Source: Escherichia phage Ptacy1537. Taken from it: 43,020 bases of DNA. Positions within the stretch are counted from its first letter, which is position 1; the number at the start of each line of letters is the position of its first letter. A program made the position numbers and the translations under genes. Under the pieces are notes generated by a model. The model searched no databases. It was given only the letters and a program-made list of their open reading frames with translations, and was not told the DNA's origin. The stretch lies in sequence record PQ863254.1, one strand, 5' to 3'. Below, in pieces: positions 5,300 to 39,400 of this stretch.

Positions 5300-5312
5300 T
5301 TTAAATAAATGC

Positions 5313-5341
5313 TTGACATTAACGAGGATGCACCATACTAT
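5313..5341 (+). promoter_or_regulatory. Candidate host sigma70-type early promoter
   Basis: TTGACA (5313-5318), 17-nt spacer, TACTAT (5336-5341). Sits upstream of the early gene block on the coding strand. Confidence 0.45.
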
Positions 5342-22282: not shown

Positions 22283-24778
22283 GTGGCTACACTCGCAGAC
22301 CAATTGGCGTTTGAAATCAAGCACCGCGACCTCGGCCGTGAACGTATGGCGGCTATTATCCAGTCAGCTGGGGAGCAGGGTAGATTGACAGACACGCCGT
22401 TGGGTACGGGTGTGCTCCGTCGATACCTGCAACGCCTCTCTGAAACCATCTCACTGGACATCACTGAGGAGCTGGGCGTACCGGGCCGCTCTAAGCAGTA
22501 CGCTGTATTGCTGAAGAACATGGACCCGGACGTACTGGCCCTGGTGTCTCTGGATACCGTCATCGAACATCTTGAGATGAGCGATGAGGAGGAGGATTCA
22601 GTACCCCTGGGTAGTATGGCATCTGCGATTGGCCGGGCTATTCACAGTGAGATTATCTTGACGGAGTTCAAGGACATATCGCCGGACTTATACGAGGTAC
22701 TGACTAACAGCCTCAAGTCGCGAATGAGCAAGAACCTCCGGCACAAGATGGCAGTGTACAAGATGCAGGCCGCTGAGCAAGGTCTGGTTCTGCCAGAGTG
22801 GACGACGGCACAGCGTGCACAGGTCGGCTCATACCTCATCGGTCTGCTGATTAACATGGGTGTGCTGGAACAGTTCACACGTTGGATTAAGCGCAAGTCC
22901 GTATACTGTGTCTCGCTGGGTACGGATGTGGTCGAATTGATGGAGGCCATCAGGGAGCGCGTAATTGAGCGCTCAGGCTTCGCAGCACCCTGCCTAATAC
23001 CACCGGAACCCTGGACCGGAGAAGAGGGCGTAGGGGGCTTCCACGGAGCTCTGAAGCTACGTGCCCCTCGCTTCTTCAAAGGAACATCCGAGCAGCTGGA
23101 GATAATGCAGACGGAAGGGTGTGACCTGACCACCACCCTGGCCGCGTTGAATTTCCAGCAGAGGGTAGCATGGAAAGTCAACCCATTCGTGCATAAGCTG
23201 GCCCTGTTAATGCTCCAGTACCGCTACGAGTTGAAGAAGTCAATCACTTCGGTGGCGTACTACCCGAAGCCTGACAGGCCCGAGTGGCTCGACCTCTGCG
23301 ACGATATGTCCAAGATATCGCCGAGGCAGAAGGAAGAGTTCGACAAGTGGAAGCTGGCCACCCGAGACTGGCACACAGAGAACAAGAAACGTGCCCGCAT
23401 TGAGGTGCGTATGCGCTTGGCCCTGGCAGCTGCGCGGGACTTCGGTGAGCTTGAGCGCTTCTACTTCGTATGCCAGGCAGATGACCGGGGCCGGGAATAC
23501 TTCTGCTCCGGGCCGCTTAACCCGCAGGGAAGTGACCTACAGAAAGCCCTGCTGCACTCCGCAGTAGGTGGGCCTGTAGACACTCCAGAGGCTGTGTTCT
23601 GGTTTAAGCTAAACATCGCCACGAAGTATGGCATTGACAAACTGGCTCCGGCCGACTGTATAAAATGGGTGGATGATAACCATGACAACATTATCTCGGC
23701 GGCGGCTGACCCTCTTAATCGCGAAGCATTTGACTGGTGGGCACAGGCCGATAAGCCGCTACAGTTTATCGCGGTGTGCGACGAGTATCGCCGTTGGGTT
23801 GAAGACCCTGTGGGTTTTGAGGCTCGAATCGCAGTCTCTATGGACGGGACGTGTAACGGCCTTCAGAACTATTCCGCGCTACTTAGGGACCCCATTGGTG
23901 GACGCGCTACGAATCTCATTAGCGCCGAATCTGGAATACCTAATGACATATACGGTGACGTGGCCCTCGCCGCTTTTAAGAGGCTCGAAGCTGACGTGGG
24001 CGGAATTTACAGACCCGGCTGGCTACTACACGGATTCAACCGAAAGCTGACGAAGCCGTCGGTCATGACCCAGGTGTACGGCTCGACGTTCGGTACGTGT
24101 CGCAAGTCCATTGTGTCGTACTGTGTAGAGCGGGCGCTGTTTGAGGATGAGCAGTATGAGCACGCTGATTACGCTGCACGTCTGGTCTGGGAAGGGATTG
24201 GAGATGTTGTTGTTGCAGCACGGGAATGTATGGAGTGGCTACGCAAGTGTGCCGGACTCATTATGGCTGAGGGTGCTGAGTTCATATCCTGGCCTGCTCC
24301 TTCGGGATTCAGGGTAGTCCAGGTGTACCGCAAGCCAAAGCTGGTGCAGGTAAGGGCGCACATCGGCAAGAGTGTGTCATATGCAATCCAGGTGGCGGTG
24401 GATGACACCGACGACCAGGACAAGATTCGACACCGAAATGCCTTCCCACCCAATTTCATCCACAGCGTCGACGCAAGCCACTTAGCAATGGTGGCTGTGG
24501 GTATGGGTTCCCTACATGAACAGATGCGCTTAGAGGGCCGCCTATCGAAGATTTGGGCTAATGAAAGTGTGTTCCTGCACTTCATCCATGACGACTTCGG
24601 TGCATTGCCACATATGGCGGCTGACTTGGCACGCATAATTCGTGAGAAGTTTGTTGAAATGCACGAGAATTATGACATTGAGTCTATCAGAAAGGACTAC
24701 TGGTTCCTCCCAGAATCTCCGAAGAAAGGCTCATTAGATATTCGTTGTGTACTCGACAGTATTAACTTCTTCCGTTGA
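22283..24778 (+). CDS. Single-subunit DNA-dependent RNA polymerase (T7 RNAP-like)
   Basis: 831 aa. GTG start with AAGGAG 6 nt upstream. C-terminal region has the T7 RNAP-type motif IHDDFG and the palm-domain FIHSVDASH. Confidence 0.9.
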   Translation: MATLADQLAFEIKHRDLGRERMAAIIQSAGEQGRLTDTPLGTGVLRRYLQRLSETISLDITEELGVPGRSKQYAVLLKNMDPDVLALVSLDTVIEHLEMSDEEEDSVPLGSMASAIGRAIHSEIILTEFKDISPDLYEVLTNSLKSRMSKNLRHKMAVYKMQAAEQGLVLPEWTTAQRAQVGSYLIGLLINMGVLEQFTRWIKRKSVYCVSLGTDVVELMEAIRERVIERSGFAAPCLIPPEPWTGEEGVGGFHGALKLRAPRFFKGTSEQLEIMQTEGCDLTTTLAALNFQQRVAWKVNPFVHKLALLMLQYRYELKKSITSVAYYPKPDRPEWLDLCDDMSKISPRQKEEFDKWKLATRDWHTENKKRARIEVRMRLALAAARDFGELERFYFVCQADDRGREYFCSGPLNPQGSDLQKALLHSAVGGPVDTPEAVFWFKLNIATKYGIDKLAPADCIKWVDDNHDNIISAAADPLNREAFDWWAQADKPLQFIAVCDEYRRWVEDPVGFEARIAVSMDGTCNGLQNYSALLRDPIGGRATNLISAESGIPNDIYGDVALAAFKRLEADVGGIYRPGWLLHGFNRKLTKPSVMTQVYGSTFGTCRKSIVSYCVERALFEDEQYEHADYAARLVWEGIGDVVVAARECMEWLRKCAGLIMAEGAEFISWPAPSGFRVVQVYRKPKLVQVRAHIGKSVSYAIQVAVDDTDDQDKIRHRNAFPPNFIHSVDASHLAMVAVGMGSLHEQMRLEGRLSKIWANESVFLHFIHDDFGALPHMAADLARIIREKFVEMHENYDIESIRKDYWFLPESPKKGSLDIRCVLDSINFFR

Positions 24779-24870
24779 TTCGTAATACTCTATGTACGGC
24801 TGACGATTAGTCAGACGATATACAGTGTTATATTATGTGTTATTAAGTGAGTATAATTAATTAATAATCT

Positions 24871-24895
24871 GATTAGTTATACTCTAAGAACACTG
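24871..24895 (+). promoter_or_regulatory. Candidate phage RNA polymerase promoter (copy 1 of a 25-nt consensus)
   Basis: CTGATTAGTTATACTCTAAGAACAC. Shares the core TATACTCTAAGAACAC (CATACTCTAAGAACAC in the third copy) with 28186-28210 and 39376-39400. Lies 12 nt upstream of a gene start in an intergenic gap. Confidence 0.6.
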
Positions 24896-24907
24896 AACGA
24901 GGTAACT

Positions 24908-25087
24908 ATGTCTCAAGATAAACAAGTCGTGCAGGTTGTCACACATCGGCTGTCGCCGGAAGCGTACATCCAGCTCGAACGTCAATGCCCTGCTCCTGCG
25001 TTAAGCAATAACCCTGATAGTGCCGCGTACAACCTTGGCGTGCAGTTCGTGCTGGCCAAGCTACGCGAAGGGTTTGTGGTGGGCTAA
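24908..25087 (+). CDS. Small hypothetical protein
   Basis: 59 aa. GAGG 6 nt upstream. TAATG overlap with the next gene. Confidence 0.45.
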   Translation: MSQDKQVVQVVTHRLSPEAYIQLERQCPAPALSNNPDSAAYNLGVQFVLAKLREGFVVG

Positions 25088-25509
25088 TGGACGTACAGCT
25101 TAACTTGAAAGAGCCGGGGGATGTTACGGAGGGCATCAACTTCCTGAAACACTCCCACTGGCAGAGTAACCCAAACTTTCAGCATTTCCACAGCTACACC
25201 GGATGGATGCGCCTAGTGCAGGAGCTAATCGAGACCAACTACCGGGCAGAGGGTCTGGTGGTGGGAGTAGACGGTACTGTGCTGGCGGCCACCATATGGT
25301 CTCCAGTTACCGACCTGCACTACGGGGATGTGGCCTACCCAATAGCCCACATGATTGACCCGTTCTGGAGAGGTAACGTGGATATGCTGAGGGCAGTGTC
25401 CAAACTGCGGCGGGCGTGTGTGGCGTCTCTGGGTACTGAATGGTATCTTGACGTGCGGCACACTTCTGAACGTGAACAACGACAACGACTCAGGAGTATC
25501 AATGGGTAA
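25087..25509 (+). CDS. Hypothetical protein
   Basis: 140-aa ORF. In the position of T7 gene 6.5-7.3 class small virion or accessory proteins. Confidence 0.55.
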   Translation: MDVQLNLKEPGDVTEGINFLKHSHWQSNPNFQHFHSYTGWMRLVQELIETNYRAEGLVVGVDGTVLAATIWSPVTDLHYGDVAYPIAHMIDPFWRGNVDMLRAVSKLRRACVASLGTEWYLDVRHTSEREQRQRLRSING

Positions 25510-25891
25510 GGTTTTTAAGAAAATCTCCAAGCCCTTCAGTAAGCTGTTAGGTGCCGTAACGGGTGCCAACGCTACTAAGGCGGCTGCGGCATCTCAGGCT
25601 CGGCAAATGGAGGAGCAGCGTAAGCAGGAGCAGGTGGCGGCGCAAGCGGCAGCACAGAATGCACGTGACCAGGCGGCTGCGGCGCAGGATTCTATTGAGA
25701 ATACCATCGCCAGGGACGCGGCAACAAGGGCGGCGGCAGATGCGCAGGCTCAGGCCCAGCTGGATAACAACCAGCAGGTCGATATTGCTGCATCGCAGGA
25801 CACTACGTCCACGGACTCCAGCGGCCGTAAGCTGGCGTCGCGTGATAAGTTCCAAAGCCGGGGTAACGGCAACACAGGACTGCGCTTATGA
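25502..25891 (+). CDS. Hypothetical A/Q-rich protein (possible small virion protein)
   Basis: ATG at 25502 with AGGAG upstream. 129 aa, low-complexity A/Q-rich. The ORF-track start at 25418 is unlikely. Confidence 0.5.
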   Translation: MGKVFKKISKPFSKLLGAVTGANATKAAAASQARQMEEQRKQEQVAAQAAAQNARDQAAAAQDSIENTIARDAATRAAADAQAQAQLDNNQQVDIAASQDTTSTDSSGRKLASRDKFQSRGNGNTGLRL

Positions 25892-27393
25892 GTAATTCCG
25901 CAAAGCACCGCTACGGCCAGCTACAGGCTAAACGCTCTGGATTGGAGACACGTAGTGAACGCTATGCGGAGCTGACAATCCCGTCTATCTGCCCACGTGA
26001 CGGATACGATGAAGGGACTCAGGAGCTGAACCTGGATTACCAAAGTGTGGGTGCGCAGTGTGTGAACAACCTCGTCAACAAGATGATGCTGGCTCTGTTC
26101 GCACCGTCTCGCCCATTCTTGCGTCTCGACCTTCCGGCCTCAACTCAGAAGGCATTAACTGAGGCGCTGGGTATATCGGATGCTCAGCTTCGTGAGCAGC
26201 TCGCCATAGCAGAGAAGGAGGCCATGAAGGTGCTCGACAAGAGCGCGTCGCGGCCCACTCTGTACGAACTGATGGCACACCTGGCCGTAACAGGTAACTG
26301 CGCCAGGTACATGGAAGACGGCGTTATGCGCATCTTCGGCATTAAGCAGTACGTAGCCCGGCGTAACAACAAGGGCCTTCTGGTGGAGATTATCACCACT
26401 GAGAAGGTCTGCGTGGAAGACTTGCCACAGGAAGTACAGGCATTCGCACGACAGGGTGACAAGGAGGTGTGCTACTACCGTTGGTGGAAGTGGGACGAGA
26501 AGCGGCAGCTGTTCTTCGAGAAGCAGTACGTAGAAGACACCCTGGTGGATATTCCGAAGTACATGGGACAGTACAAGCGCCAGGACATGCCAATCCAGGC
26601 ACACTGCTGGCGGCTGCCTAGCGGGAAACACTACGGCATCGGGATGGTTGAAGACTACGTTGCTGACCTGGAAGGGTTGAGCATGTTGTCCGAGGCAGAG
26701 GTTAACGGTGCTATCCTGGCATCGGAGTTCCGGTGGCTGGTTAACCCCGGCGGACAGACTCGCCCCGAAGACTTCAAGACTACCCGAAACGGCGATAGCA
26801 TCCCCGGCCAGAAGGGTGACGTTGAGCTGGTGGTGGCGGCAGAAGCGGCGGCGGCGTTGCAGATTGTCGGCGGCGTTGCGGAGAAGTACATTCGGCGCAT
26901 CGGTTCTGCATTCTTAATGGCTCAGAGTATTCAGCGGGATGCTGAGCGTGTGACGGCGGAAGAGATTCGCATCCTGGCTAACGAGCTGGAAACCACCCTG
27001 GGTGGCATCTACTCGCGGCAGGCTGTGGACTTACAGCTTCCCCTGGCGTACTGGATGCTTGAACAGGTGGATATGCAGGTGCTCGGTGATTCCGAGCTAC
27101 AGCCAACCATCATCACAGGTCTGGATGCCCTTAGTCGAAATGGAGACCTGGAGAACCTCCAGATGTTCATGAACGACTGTATGCCATTTATCACAATGCC
27201 GCCAGAGTTCGCTGATTACTTCAAGCTACCGAGCATATTCGCAGACCTGGCAGCAGGGCGGGGCATCATGTCCAGTACGTACCTGAACGACCAAGGCACC
27301 GTGGATACTCTGCGGCAGCAACGGCAGCAGCAGCTTACTCAGCAGCAGCAAGACTTAATGGCCCAAGAGGCCGCACTTAAAGGACAGAAATAA
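25888..27393 (+). CDS. Portal (head-tail connector) protein, T7 gp8-like
   Basis: 501 aa. Position and size fit T7-like structural-module synteny (portal, scaffold, capsid). Q-rich C-terminus. Confidence 0.75.
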   Translation: MSNSAKHRYGQLQAKRSGLETRSERYAELTIPSICPRDGYDEGTQELNLDYQSVGAQCVNNLVNKMMLALFAPSRPFLRLDLPASTQKALTEALGISDAQLREQLAIAEKEAMKVLDKSASRPTLYELMAHLAVTGNCARYMEDGVMRIFGIKQYVARRNNKGLLVEIITTEKVCVEDLPQEVQAFARQGDKEVCYYRWWKWDEKRQLFFEKQYVEDTLVDIPKYMGQYKRQDMPIQAHCWRLPSGKHYGIGMVEDYVADLEGLSMLSEAEVNGAILASEFRWLVNPGGQTRPEDFKTTRNGDSIPGQKGDVELVVAAEAAAALQIVGGVAEKYIRRIGSAFLMAQSIQRDAERVTAEEIRILANELETTLGGIYSRQAVDLQLPLAYWMLEQVDMQVLGDSELQPTIITGLDALSRNGDLENLQMFMNDCMPFITMPPEFADYFKLPSIFADLAAGRGIMSSTYLNDQGTVDTLRQQRQQQLTQQQQDLMAQEAALKGQK

Positions 27394-28175
27394 TGCTTTT
27401 CATGAATATCGCACGTAAGTTTGGCGCAGTGTACCAGGAAGAAGCAAGCCCGGAAGCAGGTTCCCCGGCAGCGGTAGCCCCTAGTGAACCAGCGGCCCCC
27501 GCAGCGGCTGCAACGCCAGCGGCACCTGCAACACCAGAAGCAGCGGCTACGGGTTCGGTAGACTATGCAGGCGTTATCTCTGAGTACGCCGAGGGCAAGC
27601 CTGCACTCGCAGTAGCTTTAGGGTTCCTTGGTGAGTGCGGTATCGACCACACCGGCCAGGCATTCGAACTGGCTAAGGGTGGTGACTTTACCTTACTGGA
27701 AGCTGAGCTGGCCAAGCTGGGTAAATCCGGTACTGCTGAGATGGTTGCCATCCTCAAGCAGGAAGTTGAGGCCAACGACAAAGCGGCACAGGAGCACGCA
27801 GCGCAAACGGAGCAGACCTTAACCAACATCCTCGGCGAGAGCAAGGACGTAATTCTGGAGTGGGCCCGCAGCGGTGCCACTGAGCAGGAGAAGTCGGCTA
27901 TCAACGAGATGCTGGACGCGGGCGGCTTCTATGCGCACTGTGCAGCTATCGCACTCCGAGAAGCGTACCAGGGCTCAAATGCCACCATCCCGGCTAAGAA
28001 CCCGATTACCAGCTCGGCGGCGGTACAGGGCGCTGCAACGGCCCTGTCGGCACGTGAGTTTGCCGCAGAATGTGAGAAGTTGTCCCGTGCTAACGGTGGC
28101 GTGGACCCGCGAGGTTTGCCAGGTTATGCACAGCTTCAGACTCGCCGTGCGGTAGGTCGTAAGCAGGGTATCTGA
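27393..28175 (+). CDS. Scaffolding protein (T7 gp9-like)
   Basis: 260 aa. Acidic, A/P/E-rich N-terminus and helical composition. Called by synteny between portal and capsid. Confidence 0.6.
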   Translation: MLFMNIARKFGAVYQEEASPEAGSPAAVAPSEPAAPAAAATPAAPATPEAAATGSVDYAGVISEYAEGKPALAVALGFLGECGIDHTGQAFELAKGGDFTLLEAELAKLGKSGTAEMVAILKQEVEANDKAAQEHAAQTEQTLTNILGESKDVILEWARSGATEQEKSAINEMLDAGGFYAHCAAIALREAYQGSNATIPAKNPITSSAAVQGAATALSAREFAAECEKLSRANGGVDPRGLPGYAQLQTRRAVGRKQGI

Positions 28176-28185
28176 TACCCAAAAG

Positions 28186-28210
28186 TTGATTCGCTATACT
28201 CTAAGAACAC
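28186..28210 (+). promoter_or_regulatory. Candidate phage RNA polymerase promoter (copy 2) upstream of the capsid gene
   Basis: TTGATTCGCTATACTCTAAGAACAC, 45 nt upstream of the capsid ATG. Same consensus as copies 1 and 3. Confidence 0.65.
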
Positions 28211-28255
28211 ACAACGATTTCACGGGCCGCTCAGGCCCAACAATGGAGAAGTACA

Positions 28256-29299
28256 ATGGCTGAAGTAGGCATCTTTGCATCTACTAACGTGCAGTATGAC
28301 ATCACCCGTCCTAACCAGCGCCTCGGTGCAGGCGACGAACTGGCTGACGTTACTGAACAGTTCACTGGCACCGTGGAAGGCACTATCAAGCGCCGCTCCG
28401 TGATGGCAGGCTTTATCCCGGTACGTTCCGTTCGCGGCACCTCTACCATCTCCAACCGTGGTATCTCTCGCGCTAAGCTGAGCAAAATCACCCCCGGTGT
28501 GACTCCAACCCCACAGGTTGAGCCGCACACCTCCAAAATCTTCCTGACCATCGACACCGTTATCATCGCCCGTAACGCCGAGCCAATGCTGGATGAGTTC
28601 CAGACTGACTACGACTACCAGGGCGAAGTGGCGCGTGAGCAGGGTCAGGAAATCGCGAACATGTACGACGAGACCTTCTTCATTCAGGCCGCTAAGGCTG
28701 CGAAGTCGGCAACCTCTCCGTACGAGCGTAACAAGGCTGGCGCTAACGTTGCCGGTGCAATGCCGGGCCACTCTGGCGGTCACGTTGTTAAGCTGGCTGC
28801 TGCGGCAGACGCGAAGGACCCGGCCAAGCTGTACGCTGCGATTGCAGACGTGGTTGAGAAGTTCCTGACCGTTGATGTCCGTCCGAACGAAGAAGACATG
28901 ATTGCTGTACTCCAGCCGTCCGCCTTCACTGCGCTGATGCAGGCTGAGTTCATCACCAACGGCGAGTACGTGACCTCTGCGGGTGTGACTCTGAACACCA
29001 AGTACGAGTTCGCAGCCTTCGGTATCCCGGTAATCACCTCCAACAACGCTGTATGCGGTAAAGAAATTACCGACCACCTCCTGTCGAACACCCGTAACGC
29101 CAACGCGTACGACGGCGACTTCACCAAGGTTGTGGCGCAAATCTTCTCCCCGCGTGCATTGCTGGCAGGTTCTACCATCCCGGTGACTTCCAAAATCTTC
29201 TTCGACGACATCTCGAAGCTGTGGTTCATCGACTCCTGGCTGTCCTTCGGTGTAACCGTGAACCGCCCGGAATACGCAGCTGTAATCGAGCTGCCGTAA
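28256..29299 (+). CDS. Major capsid protein (T7 gp10A-like)
   Basis: 347 aa, similar in length and sequence pattern to T7 gp10A. Flanked by the promoter consensus upstream and a hairpin terminator downstream. Confidence 0.85.
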   Translation: MAEVGIFASTNVQYDITRPNQRLGAGDELADVTEQFTGTVEGTIKRRSVMAGFIPVRSVRGTSTISNRGISRAKLSKITPGVTPTPQVEPHTSKIFLTIDTVIIARNAEPMLDEFQTDYDYQGEVAREQGQEIANMYDETFFIQAAKAAKSATSPYERNKAGANVAGAMPGHSGGHVVKLAAAADAKDPAKLYAAIADVVEKFLTVDVRPNEEDMIAVLQPSAFTALMQAEFITNGEYVTSAGVTLNTKYEFAAFGIPVITSNNAVCGKEITDHLLSNTRNANAYDGDFTKVVAQIFSPRALLAGSTIPVTSKIFFDDISKLWFIDSWLSFGVTVNRPEYAAVIELP

Positions 29300-29306
29300 T
29301 CTAACT

Positions 29307-29334
29307 GGCCTGCCCTTATGGGTGGGCCTTTTTT
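29307..29334 (+). terminator. Rho-independent-type terminator hairpin after the capsid gene (T-phi analog)
   Basis: GGCCTGCCC-TTAT-GGGTGGGCC (9-bp stem including two G-U pairs) followed by TTTTTT. Confidence 0.65.
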
Positions 29335-29349
29335 CGTTGAGACGGTGCA

Positions 29350-29934
29350 ATGATTGATGAACTGAACGTTGTAAACGCTTGTCTCGGCTCTATCGGTGAA
29401 CTTCCTGTAGTAGAGCTGACAGATGACCATCCCCTGATTGGTGGCTGACGCCCTAGTCCAGGTGACGCCCTAGTCCAGGAGAGTCATATCAAGTGGTGGT
29501 TCAACACGGATTGGGAAACCCTCCGCGTAGCTAACGACCACTTCATCTACACACCGGCAGATGCTGTGTCGGTGTACCCATACCGCAGACCGGACCTGAT
29601 TCAGAGGGGCCGCCGCCTGTGGGACCGTATTAACTCCACGTACGAGATGCAGGGGCCAGTGCTCTCCATCATTGTGCGTAATCTGCCGCTGGAGGACTTG
29701 CCTCCGCAGGTGGCCTTGCTGGTTAAGTATGCCGCCGTGCAACTATTCCAGCAGGACTATGACGCCGACGAAGCGAAGAAGGCCGACGTGGCCAGAGCAT
29801 ACCAGAAGGCGTTTATAACCTGCAACGCAGAACATGCACGACAGGTCCAGCTCAATGGGCTTGAGACCCTGTTCACCGGACGTGAGCGTGGCAGACTGCG
29901 ACCACGTCAATCCTCTGGAATCCCTGTGAGGTGA
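29350..29934 (+). CDS. Tail tubular protein A (T7 gp11-like), interrupted by an in-frame TGA at 29446-29448
   Basis: ATG at 29350 encodes MIDELNVVNACLGSIGELPVVELTDD, matching the T7 gp11 N-terminus. The frame hits TGA at codon 33 and then stays open in the same frame to 29934 (the ORF-track 29566..29934 ORF). Total 194 codons, against 196 for T7 gp11. Confidence 0.6.
29446..29479 (+). repeat. Perfect 17-bp tandem direct repeat (TGACGCCCTAGTCCAGG x2)
   Basis: Copy 1 at 29446-29462 and copy 2 at 29463-29479 are identical. Copy 1 begins with the in-frame TGA of the tail tubular A gene. Confidence 0.9.
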
Positions 29935-29959
29935 ATATGATTGGATACGGAGAAGGTTA

Positions 29960-32518
29960 ATGAAGGTTCAAGGCAGTTACCAATCAGTTGTGCTTGGCGT
30001 GAGCCAGCAGGTGCCACATGAGCGCCGTAGCGGTCAGATGTGGGAGCAGGTCAACATGGTGAGTGACCCCGTTCGCGGGGTTGCTCGTCGTTGGGGTTCT
30101 GTGTTCCTGGATAGCCGCGAAGTCCGAGATACAGAGATGTCTGAATCGGACATGAAGAAGGCAGTAAACCTGTACCGGGAAGCCGAGTACACGTGCGATG
30201 GCCGCGACTTAGTTGTGCTGTACGCAAAAGGAGATGTACGACCGTACGGATTGCCACCAGTAATGGCCTACGATATCACTCAGAAGAAAACGCTGAATGT
30301 TGTTGGGGAGGGTAATCTGTACGACGCTCTCCGGGCTAACGGTGCTGCATCTCGCGCTAACGTTGGACGTTTCTTGTACGTGGCGGTAAATAACTTTGTC
30401 ACTACGTTCTCTGTGTCAGACAACATTGGTGCTCCGCTGGCGGCACGTGGAGGGGCTGTATGGGTGCGGCAGGGTAACTTCTCCCGCCCGTATGCAATGA
30501 CCGTGGTAAATACCGACGGCAGTACCCGAACATTCACGTACACAACACCGGCAGCATCCTACCCCGGTAAGCTGGATACGTCGGATATTCCAATCCCAGA
30601 CGTACCGCAGGGCGACCCTTCAAATGCGGACTTGCAGGCGTACCAGAAAGCCCTGGCTGAGTACAACAAGCTCATCAGCGACCGCACCAACGCCTACAAC
30701 TCAGCTGTAACGAGTTGGATTGGTGAGGCTACTGAGAAGATGCAGCCCGCGTACATCGCGAACCAGCTTGCACAGCAGATGACGGATGCCGGGTACACAA
30801 ACGTCTGGCCTAATGGGGCGTACGTAACGTGGAATAATAGCGCAGGTATCGCTGACGTTGTAATGCCGGAGAACAGCGACGGGACGTTCATGCGGGCTGT
30901 GGCTTATCAGGTAGACGAGGCAACTAACCTTTCACCTAAACATTGGGTTGGGCAGGTTGTTAAGGTCTCGGCCAAGAAGCAGGACCAGAAGGACGCCTAC
31001 TACATGCAGGCGTACCGCAAGTCAAGTGACACAGAAGCATTCACGGACGTTATCTGGCGTGAGACCGCAGGGCAGCGGACCAAGCCAGGAGATATCTTCC
31101 TGCACTGCTGGGCAGACCTGAACACCCTGTACATCGGGAGTAGCCCTGCTGGACTGAATGGCCTGGCACCTGACGCCGAGGCTCCGGGGTACGAGGACAG
31201 CTCGGTAGGTGATGCGTTGTCATCACCGGCACCCGGATTCTTTGGCAAGGCTATTAACTACCTGGGCGTGTTCCAGGACCGTCTGCTGATTAGCTCCGGT
31301 GCAGTGGTGTTCGCCAGCCGACCGGGCGATTATCTAAACTGGTTCCGCAAGACTGTTCTGGACGTTATCGACAACGACCCTATGGAGATGTACGCCCTCG
31401 GCTCAGAGGACGACACCATTTCCTGGGACACTACGTTTGACCGCAACCTGGTATTGTTTGGGCGTAAGAACCAATACATTATCCCAGGGCGGCAGACAAT
31501 GAGTCCTAAGTCGCCGTACATTCAGATTATGTCGAGCATCAAGGACACCGTGCTGGCTGAGCCTAAGGCCAGCGGAAGTTATGTGTTCTACGGCAAAGAT
31601 ACCTCTGTGAAAGGTAGTGTGCACCAGATTCAGATTGGTGCCGTATCCGATAGCTCCGACAGCTACGAGATTAGCCAGGCCCTGGATAACTACCTGAGCG
31701 GGCGTCCTGTACAGCTGGTGACTATACAGTCACCCAACAATGTGGTAGTGCGGACAACGGACTACAACTACGGGTTGTACGTGTATACCTACCTTCAGAA
31801 CATGAACGGCGGCGAGCGTGTCTTTGACAGCTGGTCTCGCTGGGAGTGGCCAAAGGCCCTGGGTATGTGTCTGGGTATGTGTGACGACGACGGGGCGCTG
31901 TTGGTATTCAAGCTGCGTAACATTGACGGAAAGACAGCTCTACAGGCGGAGCGCTTCAGCTTCGAGACGGAGTTGCCGGATACCGGGTACTTGGACTGCA
32001 ACCGGCCTATGGACCTGAATGTCCCGAGAGAAGCTGGGCGGGCTGCGCACTACATCGGCGGCCACGAGTATTTCTTGCTGGGTTCCCGTCTGGATAAAAT
32101 TGACAGTAATATGTCCTGGTGGGAGGAGGACCTGGCCTACCTCCGTACGGGATTCGTAACTGATGCCTATGTGGTGCCTACCGCGCCGTATATGCGGGAC
32201 AGAAACGATAACCCCATAACAACAGGCCGCCTGACCCTGGGCAGCTTTAAGGTTAACGTCGAACAGACAGCCGGGCTGTATGGCTCTGTAACGACCGCAG
32301 ACCGCACTTACGAGATGGTTGACTATGGTGGGCGCTTGCTTACCCGTAAGTCGAACCAGGTGGGTCGTGTACCGCTTGTCGATACTTCCCTCTCAGTCCC
32401 GGTGTATCGGGAGATTCGTGAGTTCCAGCTGAAGCTACAGGCACGCGACTGGCTCCCTCTGACCATTACTGGCCTTGAGTGGGTTGGTCAATGGTTCAAC
32501 CGCACTCAGAGGGTGTAA
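29960..32518 (+). CDS. Tail tubular protein B (T7 gp12-like)
   Basis: 852-aa ORF directly after tail tubular A. Size and position are consistent with gp12. Confidence 0.75.
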   Translation: MKVQGSYQSVVLGVSQQVPHERRSGQMWEQVNMVSDPVRGVARRWGSVFLDSREVRDTEMSESDMKKAVNLYREAEYTCDGRDLVVLYAKGDVRPYGLPPVMAYDITQKKTLNVVGEGNLYDALRANGAASRANVGRFLYVAVNNFVTTFSVSDNIGAPLAARGGAVWVRQGNFSRPYAMTVVNTDGSTRTFTYTTPAASYPGKLDTSDIPIPDVPQGDPSNADLQAYQKALAEYNKLISDRTNAYNSAVTSWIGEATEKMQPAYIANQLAQQMTDAGYTNVWPNGAYVTWNNSAGIADVVMPENSDGTFMRAVAYQVDEATNLSPKHWVGQVVKVSAKKQDQKDAYYMQAYRKSSDTEAFTDVIWRETAGQRTKPGDIFLHCWADLNTLYIGSSPAGLNGLAPDAEAPGYEDSSVGDALSSPAPGFFGKAINYLGVFQDRLLISSGAVVFASRPGDYLNWFRKTVLDVIDNDPMEMYALGSEDDTISWDTTFDRNLVLFGRKNQYIIPGRQTMSPKSPYIQIMSSIKDTVLAEPKASGSYVFYGKDTSVKGSVHQIQIGAVSDSSDSYEISQALDNYLSGRPVQLVTIQSPNNVVVRTTDYNYGLYVYTYLQNMNGGERVFDSWSRWEWPKALGMCLGMCDDDGALLVFKLRNIDGKTALQAERFSFETELPDTGYLDCNRPMDLNVPREAGRAAHYIGGHEYFLLGSRLDKIDSNMSWWEEDLAYLRTGFVTDAYVVPTAPYMRDRNDNPITTGRLTLGSFKVNVEQTAGLYGSVTTADRTYEMVDYGGRLLTRKSNQVGRVPLVDTSLSVPVYREIREFQLKLQARDWLPLTITGLEWVGQWFNRTQRV

Positions 32519-32519
32519 G

Positions 32520-33299
32520 ATGGTTTGGGCTCAGATTGCAATGGGTGCTATGAACGCCTTAACTGGTAAGTCTGCAAAGGCTTCCCAGATGAAGGTGGCA
32601 AAGGCCCAGCTCGCTCTTGACCAAGGGCGAGCCAATAATAAAATGCAGATTCAGGTTGCCAACAACTTGCTATCTGCGGCGCAGGCAGAAGTCACCCGAA
32701 GTAACCAGGCTCGCCAGAACCGTAAGGTAATGGAGAACATGGAGAAAGGGTTGGAACAGAATGCCTTCAACCTCGGCAAGCAAATGGACGGGCTTGCTTC
32801 TAACAAGTTCTCCGCACGTCTCCAGGGTGCGGGAGCTTTGGGTACGTTGGCCGCTTCGGCGGCCTCTGCTGGAGTGGGTGGTGCCTCTGTGGATGCACTG
32901 GCCAGTACGGAGATGTTCCGCCAGGAGCTCGCAGACCAGGCAGTAGATAAGCAGGCTAAGGATGCCAGCTATGTTGCCAGTCTGAATAACAGTGCCCTGG
33001 TAGACAACGCGTACAATAACCTTGATGATTCCTATGTGTTCGCCAGCTTCGACTACAGCCCGCGTGACTTTGTAATGGACACGACGGCACAGTATAAGTG
33101 GGGCCTTGGTAATGCAGTCTCCGACTTCGCACAGGGCTTCTCCGGCAACATGAATCAGATGGGTATGAACCTTCAGGATGCAGGCTATAAAGGCGACACA
33201 TCGTTGGCGCAGGCCGGTAGCAACGCCTGGAGTGGATTGAAGAGCGGTGCCTCCAAGCTATTTGGTGGCGGTAATGCAGGTGCGACTTCGAGGTTATAA
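32520..33299 (+). CDS. Internal virion protein (T7 gp13/gp14-like position)
   Basis: ATG at 32520 one nt after the gp12 stop. 259 aa, A/G/N-rich. Called by synteny only. Confidence 0.5.
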   Translation: MVWAQIAMGAMNALTGKSAKASQMKVAKAQLALDQGRANNKMQIQVANNLLSAAQAEVTRSNQARQNRKVMENMEKGLEQNAFNLGKQMDGLASNKFSARLQGAGALGTLAASAASAGVGGASVDALASTEMFRQELADQAVDKQAKDASYVASLNNSALVDNAYNNLDDSYVFASFDYSPRDFVMDTTAQYKWGLGNAVSDFAQGFSGNMNQMGMNLQDAGYKGDTSLAQAGSNAWSGLKSGASKLFGGGNAGATSRL

Positions 33300-35527
33300 T
33301 GGCAGAAACTCCAGTGGTACAGGCTCCTGGGAAGGGGCCTATCCTTCCACAGCCATCTCCGGTACAGGTTCAGGTCCCACTGGCCAGCCAGGTGGCACAG
33401 TCCGGCGTACGTCCAACGGAAGCTCGCTTCAGCGTAGGCGGCTCTAATGGGCGTGAGTCTATGGACATGCTGAATAACATCCGGGCGGAAACCCTCCGCT
33501 CGCTGTCAGCATTCTCCCCGTTAATCGCAGAGAAGTTAAAGCAGGCCCAGGAAGATGAGTTCGCCAATGGCTACATGCGCCAACTTCAAGGTGAGACGGT
33601 TGACGACATTCGGGCTGAGCAGCCCCTGGGCGGCTTCTTTGGTGACGGCAGTGCGGTTCGTGGCGCACAGGCACGGCAGGCCGAGACTGCTGGCCAATCC
33701 ATGTTGCAGTACATCCAGCAGAACCAGGGCGACTTGTCGCGTATGGACCTGGAGTCACAGCGGCGGGCGATTGGTGCCTACGTTGAGGGGTTGAAGACCG
33801 GAGACCCTTCCAGCGACTTAATGATTGCACAGGGCGTCATGAAGATGATGCCTGCTGTGCTGGATAATCTGGCCCGTACTTCGGAGTCAGAGAACCAACG
33901 ACAGGCCCAGGTGCAGCAGGCAGATGCTATGGCCGCAGCGGGCGACAGTCTGCGTTATGCGGAGAGCGCCTTCCGTACCGGGCAGATGGGTGAGACGGCG
34001 TACAACCAGGTCAAGGCCAACTATATTCAGATGGCCGGACCGCTGCCGGGGCAAACTAACGCAAGCTACCGGGCTGCACTCACAGGCCAAATCATGCAGC
34101 TGTCTAAGGATGGCAGTCATGAGATGGCAAATCTCCTGTACGACAACCTCCTTCACGGGCAACTCACCGCCGACGAGCGGTTGCAGATGGAAGGTCAGAT
34201 TAAAGCCAGCAGAGCAGAGTGGCTACTGAACAACCCAACCGCGTACGACTTCACTGAATATCGTGCGACGTTAGGTAGTCAGATTGACGGTGGGCGATAC
34301 TCCACCCAGGCCGAGCTCGAAGCAGATATCGACCGCCAGAACGCAGACTATAAAGCCCAGACGGGTTCCCTGGTTCCACTCATTGACAACAAAGAGAAGG
34401 GCCGCGCAGTATCAAGCTGGCTGGATTACAAGCAGCGTGCAGACGCCGCTAACCAGAAGCTGATGACTGCGGAGATGGACGAGGCCGCTAAGATGGGCCT
34501 GTTCAAAGAGGGGTATGCTAAAGGCAGTCCGAGCCAGATGCAAATGAGCGGCCTGGACAGCAAGCAGAAGTACGCAGTGGAAGCCACCGAGGCTGGCCGC
34601 TTTATGGAAGGTTCGGAAGCCTCTGCACGTGTTCTGGGACGCTTAGCTTCGAATGGATACACCAACCCTGTAATTACCGAGCAAATCGGCAATACTATGG
34701 GAATCCTACGAGGAGGTGGTATCCCGAAGGCTGAGACTCTACAGCAGTTGCAGCAGATTTACGGACAGCTTAAAGCGACCCCTTATGGTGCCGCCGCCAC
34801 GGATGCATACTTCAAAGAGGACTTGCCGCTGATTGAGCGTATGGCCGGAATGGATATGACAGACAAGTCAAACGTCCAAGCTGTGCGTGAGATGGCCAAC
34901 GCCAACCGTACTACTGTCACGGTGCCAAAGGATGTGCAGACCGCAGCAGCTGAGCTTGTCGATGACGAGCTCAAGCCCGGTGTGTTCAGCCGCTGGTTCG
35001 GTGATGGTATTGAGTTAGGTGTCGGCTATGAGGCCCAGCTCAAGGATGAGATGAAGAAGCACGCTGGTGAGATTATGGCGCAATCGCCTAACGCCAACCA
35101 GAAGAACGTGCTGGAGATGGCCAAAGCACGGACACTGCGTAGCAAGGACATCGCCGGGAATATGCTCATCACAGGCAGCAGGCCAGGGCAGTTCGTATCC
35201 GCCGTAAACCAGCATCTCAACATCAAGGTATCCGACCCAAAAGATACCAGAATTAACACGTTCATCACTGACGCTGTAAAGCCGAAGATGCCGAACGGCC
35301 AATCCTTCAACGTAGGTTCGGTGGCTATGCTTCCCAACGGGGAGTCAGTAGTCGTTACTGTAACCCGTGCGAATGGCGGCAACCAGAGCCTGGTGCTCAG
35401 TCTGAAAGATATCGCCGATATCCAGAACAACAAGCGCCAGGATTATACCCGCAAATACCGTGACGCTATGAGTAAGGTGCACCCTGACCCATACGTGCTC
35501 TCCGGTATGGAACGTCCTGAGGAATAG
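33299..35527 (+). CDS. Internal virion protein (T7 gp15-like)
   Basis: 742 aa (T7 gp15 is about 747 aa). Predicted largely helical. Called by synteny. Confidence 0.6.
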   Translation: MAETPVVQAPGKGPILPQPSPVQVQVPLASQVAQSGVRPTEARFSVGGSNGRESMDMLNNIRAETLRSLSAFSPLIAEKLKQAQEDEFANGYMRQLQGETVDDIRAEQPLGGFFGDGSAVRGAQARQAETAGQSMLQYIQQNQGDLSRMDLESQRRAIGAYVEGLKTGDPSSDLMIAQGVMKMMPAVLDNLARTSESENQRQAQVQQADAMAAAGDSLRYAESAFRTGQMGETAYNQVKANYIQMAGPLPGQTNASYRAALTGQIMQLSKDGSHEMANLLYDNLLHGQLTADERLQMEGQIKASRAEWLLNNPTAYDFTEYRATLGSQIDGGRYSTQAELEADIDRQNADYKAQTGSLVPLIDNKEKGRAVSSWLDYKQRADAANQKLMTAEMDEAAKMGLFKEGYAKGSPSQMQMSGLDSKQKYAVEATEAGRFMEGSEASARVLGRLASNGYTNPVITEQIGNTMGILRGGGIPKAETLQQLQQIYGQLKATPYGAAATDAYFKEDLPLIERMAGMDMTDKSNVQAVREMANANRTTVTVPKDVQTAAAELVDDELKPGVFSRWFGDGIELGVGYEAQLKDEMKKHAGEIMAQSPNANQKNVLEMAKARTLRSKDIAGNMLITGSRPGQFVSAVNQHLNIKVSDPKDTRINTFITDAVKPKMPNGQSFNVGSVAMLPNGESVVVTVTRANGGNQSLVLSLKDIADIQNNKRQDYTRKYRDAMSKVHPDPYVLSGMERPEE

Positions 35528-35530
35528 TGA

Positions 35531-38500
35531 ATGGCTGAGTTTAAAGTAGCGCTAGACAAAAGCACGCCGTATGACGAGATGGCCCGCGCCACCGAGGAGA
35601 AATACGGACTGCCAGAGGGCCTGCTAAAGACCACCCTGCTTATTGAGAACAGAAACAACATCAAGAACCGCGTGTCTCCGAAAGGGGCGCGTGGTATTGG
35701 CCAGATTATGCCTGCCACTGCCCAGGGCTTGGGGTACAAGCCGGAGGATGCAGATGACCCGGTTAAGTCCATTGAGATGATGGGCAAGCTGTACTCCGAG
35801 CTGAATAAAACGTACGATGGCGACGTAGGGGCCATGATGGCCCACTACAACGGCGGTACTGCGGCAGGGTCTGCTTACGTTGAGGGTAAGGGTTTAAACC
35901 CGGAGACGGCGGATTACATCAAGTATGCCGCGCCGTACCTGGAGCAGACTGGTAAACCTTCGAAGTACCAGACTCAACTCCAAGGCGCTATGGACGAAAC
36001 ATTGCTGGGAGAGGCACCGAGCGACACCGCCATCTTCAACGAGACCGAAGGGGATGAGGCGTTCGGCCAGGACCTCTCAGCTAAGTTTGAGAAGCAGCTT
36101 CAGGACGAAGCACAGTTCTTCAACATGTCACTGTGGGAAGCGGCTAAGACCGGCTTCCGCAGCACCATGACCGACGCTATCGCCCATGCGTACTCCCGCG
36201 AGGATGATATCGACTTCAACCTGTCACAGTCGCACTTCGACCGTATCCAGCAGGAGTTCCCGAATGGGCTCGACCAGTCATCAACAGATAGACTTTACAA
36301 CTCTCGAAGCGATTCTGACTTTGAGTTCAACCTCGGACGCGTTAGAGATTCGCAGAAGTTTGCACAGACGCTTGGATTCCAATCTGGCCTCGACAAGTAC
36401 GCAGGTTATGCGGCTACGTTCGCAGGCGGCTTGGCTGACCCTGCGGCCCTGCCAGCAGGCACCTTCGGCCTGGCTGGGCGTGTCATCAAGGGCGGTAGTA
36501 TCGCCGCAAGTGCTAGTCGTATGGCTGTTGAAGGTGCTGTTGGTGGTGCCATTGTGTCGCCGGTTACACAGTTTGCAGACAAGGGCACAGTCTCTGCTGA
36601 GGAGCTCATGGAGAACATGGCAGCGTCTGCGGTCATGTCTACGGCAATCGGTGGAATCCTGTCTCGTGTGGGAAATCCAAAAGGATGGCGCGAGGAAGTT
36701 GATTCCTCGGTCACGGGACGAGTGGATGGCAATCCCGACTTTGTGGGTCCTCAACGACCTAAGCCAGTGGATTCTGATGGTGATGCTGTAGACTTCCGCA
36801 ACGCTACGGACACGTCGGTATCCACAGATGGGGCTGTAAGTGGAGTAGGCCCTACGGCTGTTAAGCGTGCTGCTGCGGAGTGGAACGAAACGCCTGAGAT
36901 TGGCACCGAGGCTATCCAGGCACGCCGCCAGAAGTATTACGGAAGCAAGTGGCGTGAGAAAATCTTCGGGTGGTCTGACTCTGAGGGCGTACGTCTCGCA
37001 ACCTCTAAAAGCAAAATTGCACGGTTCGTCGGCGCTATGTGGGCCGGTAACTCAGGTGCGATTGGCAAGGTAGAGGCACGTACGGCTGCTGTGTTGAAGG
37101 ACCAGCTCAAGGAGCAGCTCGACTTCACCTACATCCCGGCGATGAAGGAGATTTATGAGGGATACCTGACACCAGGCCAGAAGTATGACTACATGGCAGG
37201 CGGCTCTAAGGATGCGCAGCAGGCATTCTCCCGTGAGGTGCAGCTGGAGCGCTACCGCCACCGCGAGTACCGGATGCAGAACGAGAACAGCAGCAAGGGC
37301 TACCAGTCTACCGCCCCGGCGGCTATTCAGCGTGCAGCCAAGCTCCTGGACGACCATTACGCTGACACCAAAGCCATGCACATGCAGGCCCAGACAGAGC
37401 ACGCCGCTCAGCTCAAGGACAGTGACCCCATCGGTTACATTGAGCAGCGCCCGGACTTCGTTAAGCTGCAAAGCTCGGATACGGCGACGCGCAAAGCGTT
37501 CTTGGAAATGGTCAAAGATGACTACCGAGCAGAGGCCCAGGCCAAGATTAACAAGATGCGCGGTGAGCGGGAGGCGTGGATTACTCAGGCGTATAAGCGT
37601 GCTGAGCAAGCGCTAGATGGTCAGAAGGGCGAAGGCAAGCCTGCTAACCCGCTGTGGGTTGACGAGTTCCTCAAGAACCCGGACGCCTACTTCGACAAGC
37701 ATATCTCGCAGCTCTCGAAGAAGATTGCAGCGGAGATGGACAAGCGTGCCAGCCACTGGTGGGATAACGCCCTCAGCGACCCTGAGACGCGCTATCAGAA
37801 CTCAGAGGCCTCCTTGCTTAGCCTGGCCAGAGAGATGTCTGACGAGTGGTTTACGGGACGTGAGGTTGACGCTGAGTTGGTCAAGTCGTTCCAGCAGGCA
37901 CTGACCAGCAAGTGGGCAGACACCTCCCGTCGGGAACTGCGCATGACCAATAGCCGCCAGGTTAACGGTGAGCAGGTGTATCTCCTGGACATGTTCCAGC
38001 ATGATGTATTCGGAACTATGTCGAACAACATCGCAGATACAGCGGGCCGGGTAGCAATGGCTAAGATGGGGTGGAAGACGGAGCAGGATATCGCCGACAC
38101 ACTATCAGCCATGCGTGAGGAGGGTGTGCCTACTCGTGAGCTGGAGGCTGCGAAGCATATCAGTGACCTTATTCTTAACCGCGCACGTGGCCTGGATAAC
38201 AATCCCCTGGTTATGGCTGCGAGCAACATCACCCACGCAGCAATGATGGGTAAGCTCGGTACGTCTATTCTGGCGGACCTGCCAACCATTATCGGCAACC
38301 TCGGCATCGGCGGGATGACCCGCGCCCTAGGTGACATGGCCAAGCAGGTGGTTAACGGGGAGCTGTTCGTTAAGAACGGGCGCAAGACTGCCCTGGGTAA
38401 CGACCTGGACGCATACCTGACAGGTCTGAACGGGCACGACCACGAGCTGTGGATTCCTCAGCAGATTAACGCTGACGGGCAAGCTATGGACATGTCCGGC

Positions 38501-39358
38501 TCAATCCTCCGCCGCTCGGCTGCTGCTGCACGATTCACCAACACCCTCAGCTTCGCTAACGCCATCAGCCGCTCTATAGGCACCGCTGTGACACGCACGA
38601 CCAACAAGTCACTGCACAAGTACCTGCGCACCGGTAAGGGCATCAGTGATGCGCGTATGGTGGATGCAGGCATGTCGGCGAAGCTGCGTCAGCGTATTAA
38701 GGCGCAGTTCGACGCCCACGGCGGCAAGAATGACTTCGGCCTGGATAAGTGGACAGACCCGTATGCGAAGGAGAGCTTCATCTCAATCGCACACCGCTTC
38801 ACTAACCAGAACCGCATCGACCACCAATCAGCAGGAGAACTTCCGAAGTGGACCAGAGACAACATGCTCGGCGTTCTATTTGGCCGTTTCCGTACAATTG
38901 GGATTCGAGCCCAGGAGAAACTTCTTGTCCGAAATTTAACGATGGCAGACAGCAACACCCTGGCAATGTTAACCGCTGGGTTGGCTTTCACTACCTTCCT
39001 GGCATACGGTCGTATCTACTTAGACGCTGCCACCTCGAAGGATGGTGCGAAGGTACTGAAAGACCGTCTTACGCCGATGGGCGTGGCAAATACAGTGACC
39101 CGTCTGTCATCGGTAACTGGCCTAGCCTCGGAGGGTCTTGGCCTGCTGGACTTGATGACTGGTGGCGGAGTCAAGGGCGGCGGTGATACACCGCTTACTG
39201 GAGCTATCGGAAACATTACAGGTGCCCTCGGCGCTACTGGTTCGGCGCTTACCGGTAACGGTGAGTGGTCCCAGGCGGGTGCGGCTTCCTTCAAGTTGCT
39301 TCCCGGTGCAAACACTTATCTTCTGATGGGATTGCAGAAATCTATCAGTGACGACTAA
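35531..39358 (+). CDS. Internal virion protein with N-terminal lytic transglycosylase (SLT) domain (T7 gp16-like)
   Basis: 1275 aa. N-terminal region with LLIENRNN...GARGIGQIMPATAQGLGY...MMAHYNGG matches the SLT/goose-lysozyme-like fold signature, as in T7 gp16. Confidence 0.75.
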   Translation: MAEFKVALDKSTPYDEMARATEEKYGLPEGLLKTTLLIENRNNIKNRVSPKGARGIGQIMPATAQGLGYKPEDADDPVKSIEMMGKLYSELNKTYDGDVGAMMAHYNGGTAAGSAYVEGKGLNPETADYIKYAAPYLEQTGKPSKYQTQLQGAMDETLLGEAPSDTAIFNETEGDEAFGQDLSAKFEKQLQDEAQFFNMSLWEAAKTGFRSTMTDAIAHAYSREDDIDFNLSQSHFDRIQQEFPNGLDQSSTDRLYNSRSDSDFEFNLGRVRDSQKFAQTLGFQSGLDKYAGYAATFAGGLADPAALPAGTFGLAGRVIKGGSIAASASRMAVEGAVGGAIVSPVTQFADKGTVSAEELMENMAASAVMSTAIGGILSRVGNPKGWREEVDSSVTGRVDGNPDFVGPQRPKPVDSDGDAVDFRNATDTSVSTDGAVSGVGPTAVKRAAAEWNETPEIGTEAIQARRQKYYGSKWREKIFGWSDSEGVRLATSKSKIARFVGAMWAGNSGAIGKVEARTAAVLKDQLKEQLDFTYIPAMKEIYEGYLTPGQKYDYMAGGSKDAQQAFSREVQLERYRHREYRMQNENSSKGYQSTAPAAIQRAAKLLDDHYADTKAMHMQAQTEHAAQLKDSDPIGYIEQRPDFVKLQSSDTATRKAFLEMVKDDYRAEAQAKINKMRGEREAWITQAYKRAEQALDGQKGEGKPANPLWVDEFLKNPDAYFDKHISQLSKKIAAEMDKRASHWWDNALSDPETRYQNSEASLLSLAREMSDEWFTGREVDAELVKSFQQALTSKWADTSRRELRMTNSRQVNGEQVYLLDMFQHDVFGTMSNNIADTAGRVAMAKMGWKTEQDIADTLSAMREEGVPTRELEAAKHISDLILNRARGLDNNPLVMAASNITHAAMMGKLGTSILADLPTIIGNLGIGGMTRALGDMAKQVVNGELFVKNGRKTALGNDLDAYLTGLNGHDHELWIPQQINADGQAMDMSGSILRRSAAAARFTNTLSFANAISRSIGTAVTRTTNKSLHKYLRTGKGISDARMVDAGMSAKLRQRIKAQFDAHGGKNDFGLDKWTDPYAKESFISIAHRFTNQNRIDHQSAGELPKWTRDNMLGVLFGRFRTIGIRAQEKLLVRNLTMADSNTLAMLTAGLAFTTFLAYGRIYLDAATSKDGAKVLKDRLTPMGVANTVTRLSSVTGLASEGLGLLDLMTGGGVKGGGDTPLTGAIGNITGALGATGSALTGNGEWSQAGAASFKLLPGANTYLLMGLQKSISDD

Positions 39359-39375
39359 TATATAGCCAGGGAAGG

Positions 39376-39400
39376 CTGATTCGTCATACTCTAAGAACAC
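39376..39400 (+). promoter_or_regulatory. Candidate phage RNA polymerase promoter (copy 3) upstream of the tail fibre gene
   Basis: CTGATTCGTCATACTCTAAGAACAC, 25 nt upstream of the tail fibre ATG. Confidence 0.65.

Follow-up and report, generated by a model that had tools for sequence, protein, structure and literature searches.

The 43,020-bp window analysed here is the complete, circularly permuted genome of Escherichia phage Ptacy1537 (PQ863254.1), rotated to begin at the ATG of the terminase large-subunit gene (1–1914). Its long open reading frames (ORFs) are all on the + strand. The window was assigned to the Autographiviridae, subfamily Melnykvirinae. Gene order is phiKMV-like: the gene for a T7-type single-subunit RNA polymerase (RNAP) ends the DNA-metabolism block, and the structural genes come directly next. 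A 25-nt motif recurs at five full sites and one degenerate site (Table 1). It is very probably the promoter of the phage's own RNAP, because a T7-type enzyme is encoded, the sites are placed as in T7, and the motif changes together with the specificity loop of the polymerase.

Six Klebsiella phages of the same subfamily, vB_KpP_GP-4, vB_Kpn1-P3, vB_Kpl_K59PH2, KYP, 6937, and vB-Kvc-Y10, are close relatives, with 85–88% nucleotide identity by megablast over the 7-kb stretch tested. Together with the window they make up the seven genomes compared. Remoter relatives found by megablast are phages of Cronobacter, Pectobacterium, Yersinia, Aeromonas, and Kosakonia. More distant genera were compared for motif sites using phiR8-01, MA13, EspYZU13, and 25AhydR2PP, the last reverse-complemented. 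A search of IMG/VR for further relatives by motif gave no matches. Two short metagenome contigs, OBJT01007404.1 (site B) and OBJT01011197.1 (site A), belong to a further relative and carry the ATACTC form of the motif described below.

The initial annotation had listed three copies of the motif, all on the + strand. These three are real and, as described there, intergenic, ahead of the first gene after the RNAP gene, the capsid gene, and the tail-fibre gene. The positions given for the second and third (28186–28210 and 39376–39400) are exact; the first, placed at 24871–24895, was off by 2 nt and lies at 24869–24893. The count was too low, and the strand claim failed. Sites A, B, C, and E are on the + strand and D and F on the minus strand, where D is a full copy (4702..4678) and F is degenerate. 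A genome-wide search with mismatches, proposed as a check, placed the motif far above chance and also exposed the minus-strand copy. Core ATACTCTAAGAACAC has exactly three + strand matches (24879–24893, 28196–28210, and 39386–39400). With up to two mismatches allowed, 0.07 matches are expected by chance, and 0 of 100 shuffles equalled the observed count. The upstream 17-mer TGATTMGYNAYACTCTA has exactly five matches in the window. In a position-weight scan the five sites scored 27–53 bits, the best of 30 shuffles scored 14.4, and every other place in the window scored 8 bits or less. Occurrence inside genes was also checked: none was found in the window, except that site E overlaps the RNAP stop codon.

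A further + strand match at 17255–17271, with three mismatches, lies just past the DNA polymerase gene. It was rejected as a chance match that starts the next ORF; it is not kept as a motif in the relatives and shows no covariation. Separately, phiR8-01 (11862) and EspYZU13 (26600) have an extra promoter-like site at the DNA polymerase gene stop codon, which the Klebsiella clade does not have.

In 6/6 close relatives, all sites keep their places and orientations. Across the seven genomes, motif positions −6 to −1 are invariant at every site, and positions +1 to +7 are invariant in A, B, C, and E. The TGATT element differs among the seven only by a few single-base changes, at sites A and D. In the flanks of B and D, 16–17 of 26 columns are variable. 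At site B, 16 of 26 upstream flank columns vary and only three motif columns do, all of them covarying. Site E is invariant across the six relatives apart from the covarying columns. Site D keeps all 17 upstream positions in these phages and follows the switch from T to C that distinguishes two forms of the motif. The ATACTC form (ATACTCTA) occupies all five sites plus F in the window, GP-4, K59PH2, and KYP; the ACACTC form (AGTTACACTCTA) does so in Kpn1-P3, 6937, and Kvc-Y10. Among the more distant genera, phiR8-01 (TGAATGTCGACCCTATTAAAG), MA13 (TGATTAGGTGCACTTATAGCAAC), EspYZU13, and 25AhydR2PP each have a core of their own at the same locations, and these cores are all flanked by the same cTGA(T/A)T. 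The MA13 version, TTAGGTGCACTTATAGCAAC, resembles the SP6 promoter.

Conservation extends beyond the core, with AACGA about 8–12 nt downstream at all sites and CAnnGGGCC further on in B, C, and D. These shared elements, and a hairpin in the leader of B, would suit a unit that acts in RNA, either as a shared late-mRNA 5′ leader or as a processing site like the T7 RNase III sites. However, the strongest conservation and the covariation are at −17 to −5, upstream of the would-be RNA. Notable structure is confined to the B leader; those of A and C are no more stably folded than their shuffles. The D transcript has no compensatory pairs, and its surroundings (3300–5900) contain no Rfam family. An RNA-level function is thus extremely improbable as the source of the motif.

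The RNAP matches T7 RNAP chains with E = 7e-85 (phmmer) and T7 gene 1 with 100% probability (hhalign), and has Pfam domains RNA_pol (PF00940; 1e-84) and RPOL_N. The RNAPs of the seven phages are all 831 aa in length and 96–99.9% identical. The general role of the specificity loop is set out in PMC11617373. The loop equivalent comprises 34 aa between the T7-shared anchors YKKP and PNFxHS, the same length as T7 743–776. Nine RNAP columns divide the ATACTC from the ACACTC group, and 5/9 (689, 691, 693, 706, and 709) are in the 34-residue loop (P = 1e-5 for the clustering; 2e-4 conditional on variable columns). The changes Q689R, R691K, and H693Y track the T/C switch in the promoter. Q689, R691, and H693 correspond to T7 Q744, R746, and N748 in the phmmer register and to T7 R746, N748, and M750 in the MAFFT and hhalign register. 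T7 R746 and N748, the known base-reading residues of that strand, fall on discriminating residues under both. The variable promoter base corresponds to T7 −7 when the promoters are aligned via the shared CACT, and T7 R746 is said to read −7 in the T7 base contacts credited to Raskin et al. 1992 and to Cheetham, Jeruzalmi and Steitz 1999. In the register of MAFFT and hhalign, the equivalent of R746 is residue 689, which is Gln in the phages with template A and Arg in those with template G. Arg–G and Gln–A are the usual residue–base pairings. The counterpart of T7 85–110, the AT-rich recognition loop, is identical in the seven phages.

Table 1. Motif sites and associated features of the Ptacy1537 genome
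Feature	Coordinates	Strand	Sequence and remarks
Inferred direct terminal repeat	3745..4318		Single collapsed copy; inferred from homology to the GP-4 584-bp repeat
Junction-like sequence	4316..4326	+	CTATCTGTATC; right boundary of inferred terminal repeat
Inverted junction-like sequence	4604..4614	-	CTATCTGTATC; 69–79 nt downstream of predicted start of D
Site D	4678..4702	-	TTGATTCGTCATACTCTATGAGCAC; 49 bits in position-weight scan
T7-type single-subunit RNAP gene	22283..24778	+	GTG start; 831 aa
Specificity-loop equivalent	24338..24439	+	KLVQVRAHIGKSVSYAIQVAVDDTDDQDKIRHRN; RNAP residues 686–719
Site E	24775..24799	+	TTGATTCGTAATACTCTATGTACGG; over RNAP stop TGA (24776–24778); 26.9 bits
A+T-rich spacer between E and A	24815..24868		81% A+T; genome average about 45%
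Site F	24837..24863	-	TAATTAATTATACTCACTTAATAACAC; degenerate inverted copy
Site A	24869..24893	+	CTGATTAGTTATACTCTAAGAACAC; before first post-RNAP gene (ATG 24908)
Site B	28186..28210	+	TTGATTCGCTATACTCTAAGAACAC; before major capsid gene (ATG 28256)
GC-rich hairpin, capsid mRNA leader	28224..28238	+	GGGCCgctcaGGCCC; −11.4 kcal/mol, z = −2.15
Intrinsic terminator	29307..29334	+	9-bp stem, 4-nt loop, T6; capsid stop at 29299
Site C	39376..39400	+	CTGATTCGTCATACTCTAAGAACAC; before tail-fibre gene (ATG 39425; Phage_T7_tail N-terminal domain)

If the geometry is that of T7, the N-terminal AT-rich recognition loop would bind TGATT (−17 to −13), and the specificity loop would read −12 to −5 (MGYNAYAC) through the major groove. 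TCTA (−4 to −1) would be melted, and RNA would begin in the next A/T–G dinucleotide. This dinucleotide is AG at A, B, and C and TG at D and E, so that the G is invariant. At site A the start is predicted at A 24887 or G 24888. By analogy, the motif would share with T7 promoters both the −17 to +6 span and recognition by the specificity loop.

Alternatively, the motif could serve a different DNA-binding protein (a phage regulator or a terminase, for example) or be a host sigma-70 promoter. Site B is overlapped by a weak sigma-70-like match (CTGATA-17-TATACT, 9/12 in a consensus scan), and the tie between motif and RNAP comes from sequence comparison. However, the other sites have no −35/−10 pair at usable spacing, and the late region contains eight sigma-70-like matches against 10 expected from shuffles. 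With unusable spacing and no enrichment over shuffles, the sigma-70 explanation was rejected. Of the features tested, the RNAP specificity loop alone covaries with the motif, whose architecture is T7/SP6-like and whose positions are T7-syntenic. Binding by any such protein other than the phage RNAP is therefore highly improbable.

Several points weigh against assigning the motif to the phage RNAP. The loop register shifts by two residues between phmmer and MAFFT/hhalign, and a single-sequence model of the RNAP structure (pLDDT 34) was not usable for the loop register; its strands at 687–694 and 698–705 were given no weight. The covariation of promoter and enzyme is a single evolutionary event between two clades, and three of the six sites (E, F, and A) are physically linked to the RNAP gene. 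The start region has no T7 GGG. The first G is one base further from CACT than in T7, which makes +1 ambiguous, and D and E have T at +1 under strict T7 geometry. In GP-4, the closest published relative, no phage promoters were found with PhagePromoter (PMC11486747). The training of the tool on T7/T3-like sequences is the most likely reason for this null result. As to earlier description, no phage promoter is annotated in the database records of 6/6 relatives, and the exact motif has no match in the searchable literature.

Among the closest described systems is that of Yersinia phage phi80-18, also in Melnykvirinae, for which four 25-nt promoters were predicted in silico (Filik et al. 2020, PMC7316996). 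These promoters, P1–P4, lie upstream of g01, g38 (after the RNAP gene, g37), g44, and g50, which except for g01 are late genes (PMC7316996). Like the window sites, they are placed at the left end, behind the RNAP gene, and ahead of the capsid and tail-fibre genes; the 25-nt length and the TGAT(T/a) element also match, and both sets are in silico predictions. The phi80-18 consensus is TGAT(T/a)(c/g)TCTACCCATATAG (PMC7316996). The two systems differ in the −12 to −5 core, TCTACCCATATAG in phi80-18 and CGTCATACTCTAAG in the window. P1 is described as lying upstream of g01; the left-end site of the window, by contrast, occupies the other strand. Two elements of the window are additional to the phi80-18 set: a second site, which overlaps the RNAP stop codon, and an inverted relic. 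This homologous set, a cognate T7-type RNAP, T7-syntenic sites, and covariation of motif and loop support the phage-RNAP promoter interpretation offered in the initial annotation. The motif is ordinary in kind and was not previously described for the Klebsiella Melnykvirinae clade.

As in T7, where phi10, Tphi, and phi17 have this arrangement, a promoter is found before the capsid gene, a terminator after it, and a promoter before the tail-fibre gene. Site A corresponds to T7 phi1.1B and phi80-18 P2, site B to phi10 and P3, and site C to phi17 and P4. T7 has 17 promoters, many before middle genes; the window has five, none of them early or middle, and its RNAP gene is at the end of the middle region, unlike that of T7. 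The T7 start GGGAGA and CTATA contrast with AGAACAC and CTCTA in the window.

Sites A, B, and C would drive the late genes, namely the head genes, the capsid gene, and the fibre-to-lysis genes. Their leaders are 20, 51, and 30 nt long, respectively, and contain Shine-Dalgarno sequences. The suggestion that only late genes carry the motif thus fits A, B, and C, but it does not extend to E, over the RNAP stop, or to D, near the left end. The terminator-like hairpin reported after the capsid gene is present (29307–29328; −19.3 kcal/mol, z = −3.2), with a 9-bp stem and T6 after it, and the GP-4 depositors annotated a rho-independent terminator at the same place. This terminator would be leaky, so that capsid mRNA would outnumber the other transcripts. 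The tail and core (internal-virion) genes would be expressed by read-through, as in T7, because they have no promoters of their own between the terminator and site C. The GC-rich hairpin in the capsid leader keeps its stem in Kvc-Y10, where the loop is altered, and every related genus has a counterpart GC hairpin of other sequence at the same place. The window scan found no phage-promoter site in the stretch from about 5 kb to 24.7 kb. The RNAP gene and the other early and middle genes would therefore depend on host polymerase. One host promoter is annotated in the GP-4 record and corresponds to window 5313–5341.

Sites E and A are in tandem, 94 bp apart, directly after the RNAP gene. Site F and the upstream half of site A form a 15-bp palindrome (24849–24863 with 24870–24884), and the fold of 24794–24890 has z = −4.07. 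Next to the RNAP gene, the extra site has the direct orientation in the Klebsiella clade and phiR8-01, whereas MA13, EspYZU13, and 25AhydR2PP have it inverted and back to back with A. The inverted copies in these three are good matches (MA13 23745, EspYZU13 33251, and 25AhydR2PP 20324, all minus) and face the 3′ end of the RNAP gene; judged from sequence, they would yield antisense RNA to that gene. Site F is a degenerate relic of the inverted copy kept by these three genera. In T7, phi1.1A and phi1.1B are the primary replication origin. They too stand in tandem right behind the RNAP gene, with a spacing of 75 bp compared with 94 bp in the window. Both regions include an A+T-rich stretch, which in T7 is past the second promoter and in the window is between the promoters, where the spacer also holds an inverted half-site. 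The T7-type origin layout of tandem phage promoters and an A+T-rich stretch after the RNAP gene is thus present, with putative origin activity.

Site D lies rightward of the inferred terminal repeat, at a distance of about 360 bp. The homologous repeat in GP-4 (584 bp) was determined with PhageTerm (PMC11486747). D points leftward into the repeat and away from all genes, with a predicted start near 4683–4684. Its counterpart in GP-4, where the ends are mapped, is at 971..947 and is directed to the left end. The left-end site is on the + strand in phiR8-01, EspYZU13, and 25AhydR2PP and on the minus strand in MA13 and the Klebsiella clade. D is also the counterpart of phi80-18 P1. T7 phiOL, also a phage promoter, likewise stands a few hundred bp beyond the right end of the repeat and ahead of the early host promoters, but it is rightward, whereas D is leftward. 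A leftward phage-polymerase promoter is not among the annotated features of the T7 record.

Protein-coding genes downstream of D were not found: only ORFs of 20–25 aa occur there, in a region with indels among relatives. An Rfam search of the region around D at E values up to 1 gave nothing. RNAalifold on six genomes found no compensatory pairs downstream of D (covariation term −0.05), and the single-sequence fold has z = −0.5. As a separate observation, the start region of D has two forms, TGAGCAC in the window, GP-4, Kpn1-P3, and 6937 and AGAACAG in K59PH2, KYP, and Kvc-Y10. This split cuts across the promoter and polymerase groups and suggests recombination or repeated change.

Sites D and E, and likewise F, might be functionless relics of local inversion or duplication, with only A, B, and C in use. 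Such an origin would account for the non-consensus start regions (TGAGCAC in D and TGTACGG in E), the flipping of left-end and RNAP-proximal sites between genera, the missing credible ORF after D, and the clear degeneracy of F. A relic would drift, however, and D keeps its 17 upstream positions and follows the T-to-C switch despite variable flanks. E is invariant save for the covarying columns, and each genus examined keeps a left-end site and a second site beside the RNAP gene in either orientation. It is improbable that these sites are idle. That D- and E-type sites are kept and track RNAP specificity whatever their orientation argues that the polymerase binds them for a purpose other than expression. 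D and E, with their non-consensus start regions, are probably not mainly for gene expression.

The surroundings of D offer a candidate for such a purpose. The window contains just two exact copies of the 11-mer CTATCTGTATC, one per orientation, and the inverted copy is inside a 21-nt block that is invariant in the seven genomes. The right boundary of the terminal repeat is in or next to TATCTGT in T7 (157–167), GP-4 (581–591), and phiR8-01 (381–391). The repeat ends after GGGCTA in GP-4, before TCTGTATCC; after GGGCTAT in phiR8-01, before CTGTATCC; and at 160 in T7, with ATCTGTT from 161. In these alignments TATCTGT looks like a conserved concatemer-junction signal across subfamilies. The junction-like signal is at the right repeat boundary and faces late transcription, as does the T7 class II signal. 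An exact T7 class II signal, ATCTGTT, was sought and not retained: the window has ATCTGTA, a 6/7 match, at 4318–4324 (+) and 4612..4606 (−). The T7 signal, a sequence-specific signal for pausing or termination 6–8 nt further on, acts through the non-template strand, and any base change is reported to abolish its effect in T7 RNAP. The enzyme of the window is, however, a different one. The inverted second copy downstream of D has no T7 counterpart.

Rightward late transcription and leftward transcription from D would both meet CTATCTGTATC, on either side of 4327–4603. This segment of about 280 bp carries TCTAATCGC hairpins. Tentatively, and with considerable doubt, D might load RNAP by the repeat rather than serve gene expression, and stalling on both sides of the segment might mark the concatemer for cutting and packaging or mark a replication start. 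In that case its function would depend on polymerase loading and not on the transcript, and orientation differing between genera would fit.

Other features were noted at the left end. Palindromes at 3928–3942, 4438–4458, and 4533–4553 have the common centre (T)CTAATCG(C), and their arms change compensatingly among relatives (CTGGC/GCCAG, CAGCC/GGCTG, and CAGGC/GCCTG). Three of the 20 window occurrences of TAATCG/CGATTA are in this stretch, and the hexamer itself is not left-end specific. The palindromes might form hairpins or bind proteins in the repeat and packaging region. A leftward, near-consensus sigma-70-like promoter (4130..4102, minus; TTGACA-17-TATAGT, 11/12) is inside the inferred repeat and is kept in the seven genomes; T7 has a leftward Escherichia coli promoter, A0, at 224. 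The sequence TTCCCCCATAGG is at 3768–3779, about 25 nt from the inferred left end, and likewise at 23–34 in T7.

Outside these regions, the tail tubular protein A gene (29350–29934) has an in-frame TGA after 32 codons, with the stop at 29446–29448. About 21 nt, encoding AAARSRL in 6/6 relatives, are replaced by a repeat of the following sequence, so that TGACGCCCTAGTCCAGG occurs twice. The anomaly spans about 29441–29480, and gene length is still 585 nt. The stop is either an assembly artefact or a defect in an essential gene.

The basic picture of T7-like transcription is unchanged. These results give a predicted transcription map for the clade of GP-4, KYP, K59PH2, 6937, Kpn1-P3, Kvc-Y10, and the window, with five predicted phage-polymerase promoters, one terminator, and host polymerase for early and middle genes. 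The clade also offers a natural pair of polymerases, 96–98% identical, that seemingly differ in the base read at one position (Gln/A versus Arg/G) and are a compact starting point for orthogonal polymerase–promoter pairs. The backward left-end promoter and its inverted junction-like signal provide a handle on how a T7-like polymerase may be coupled to replication and packaging.

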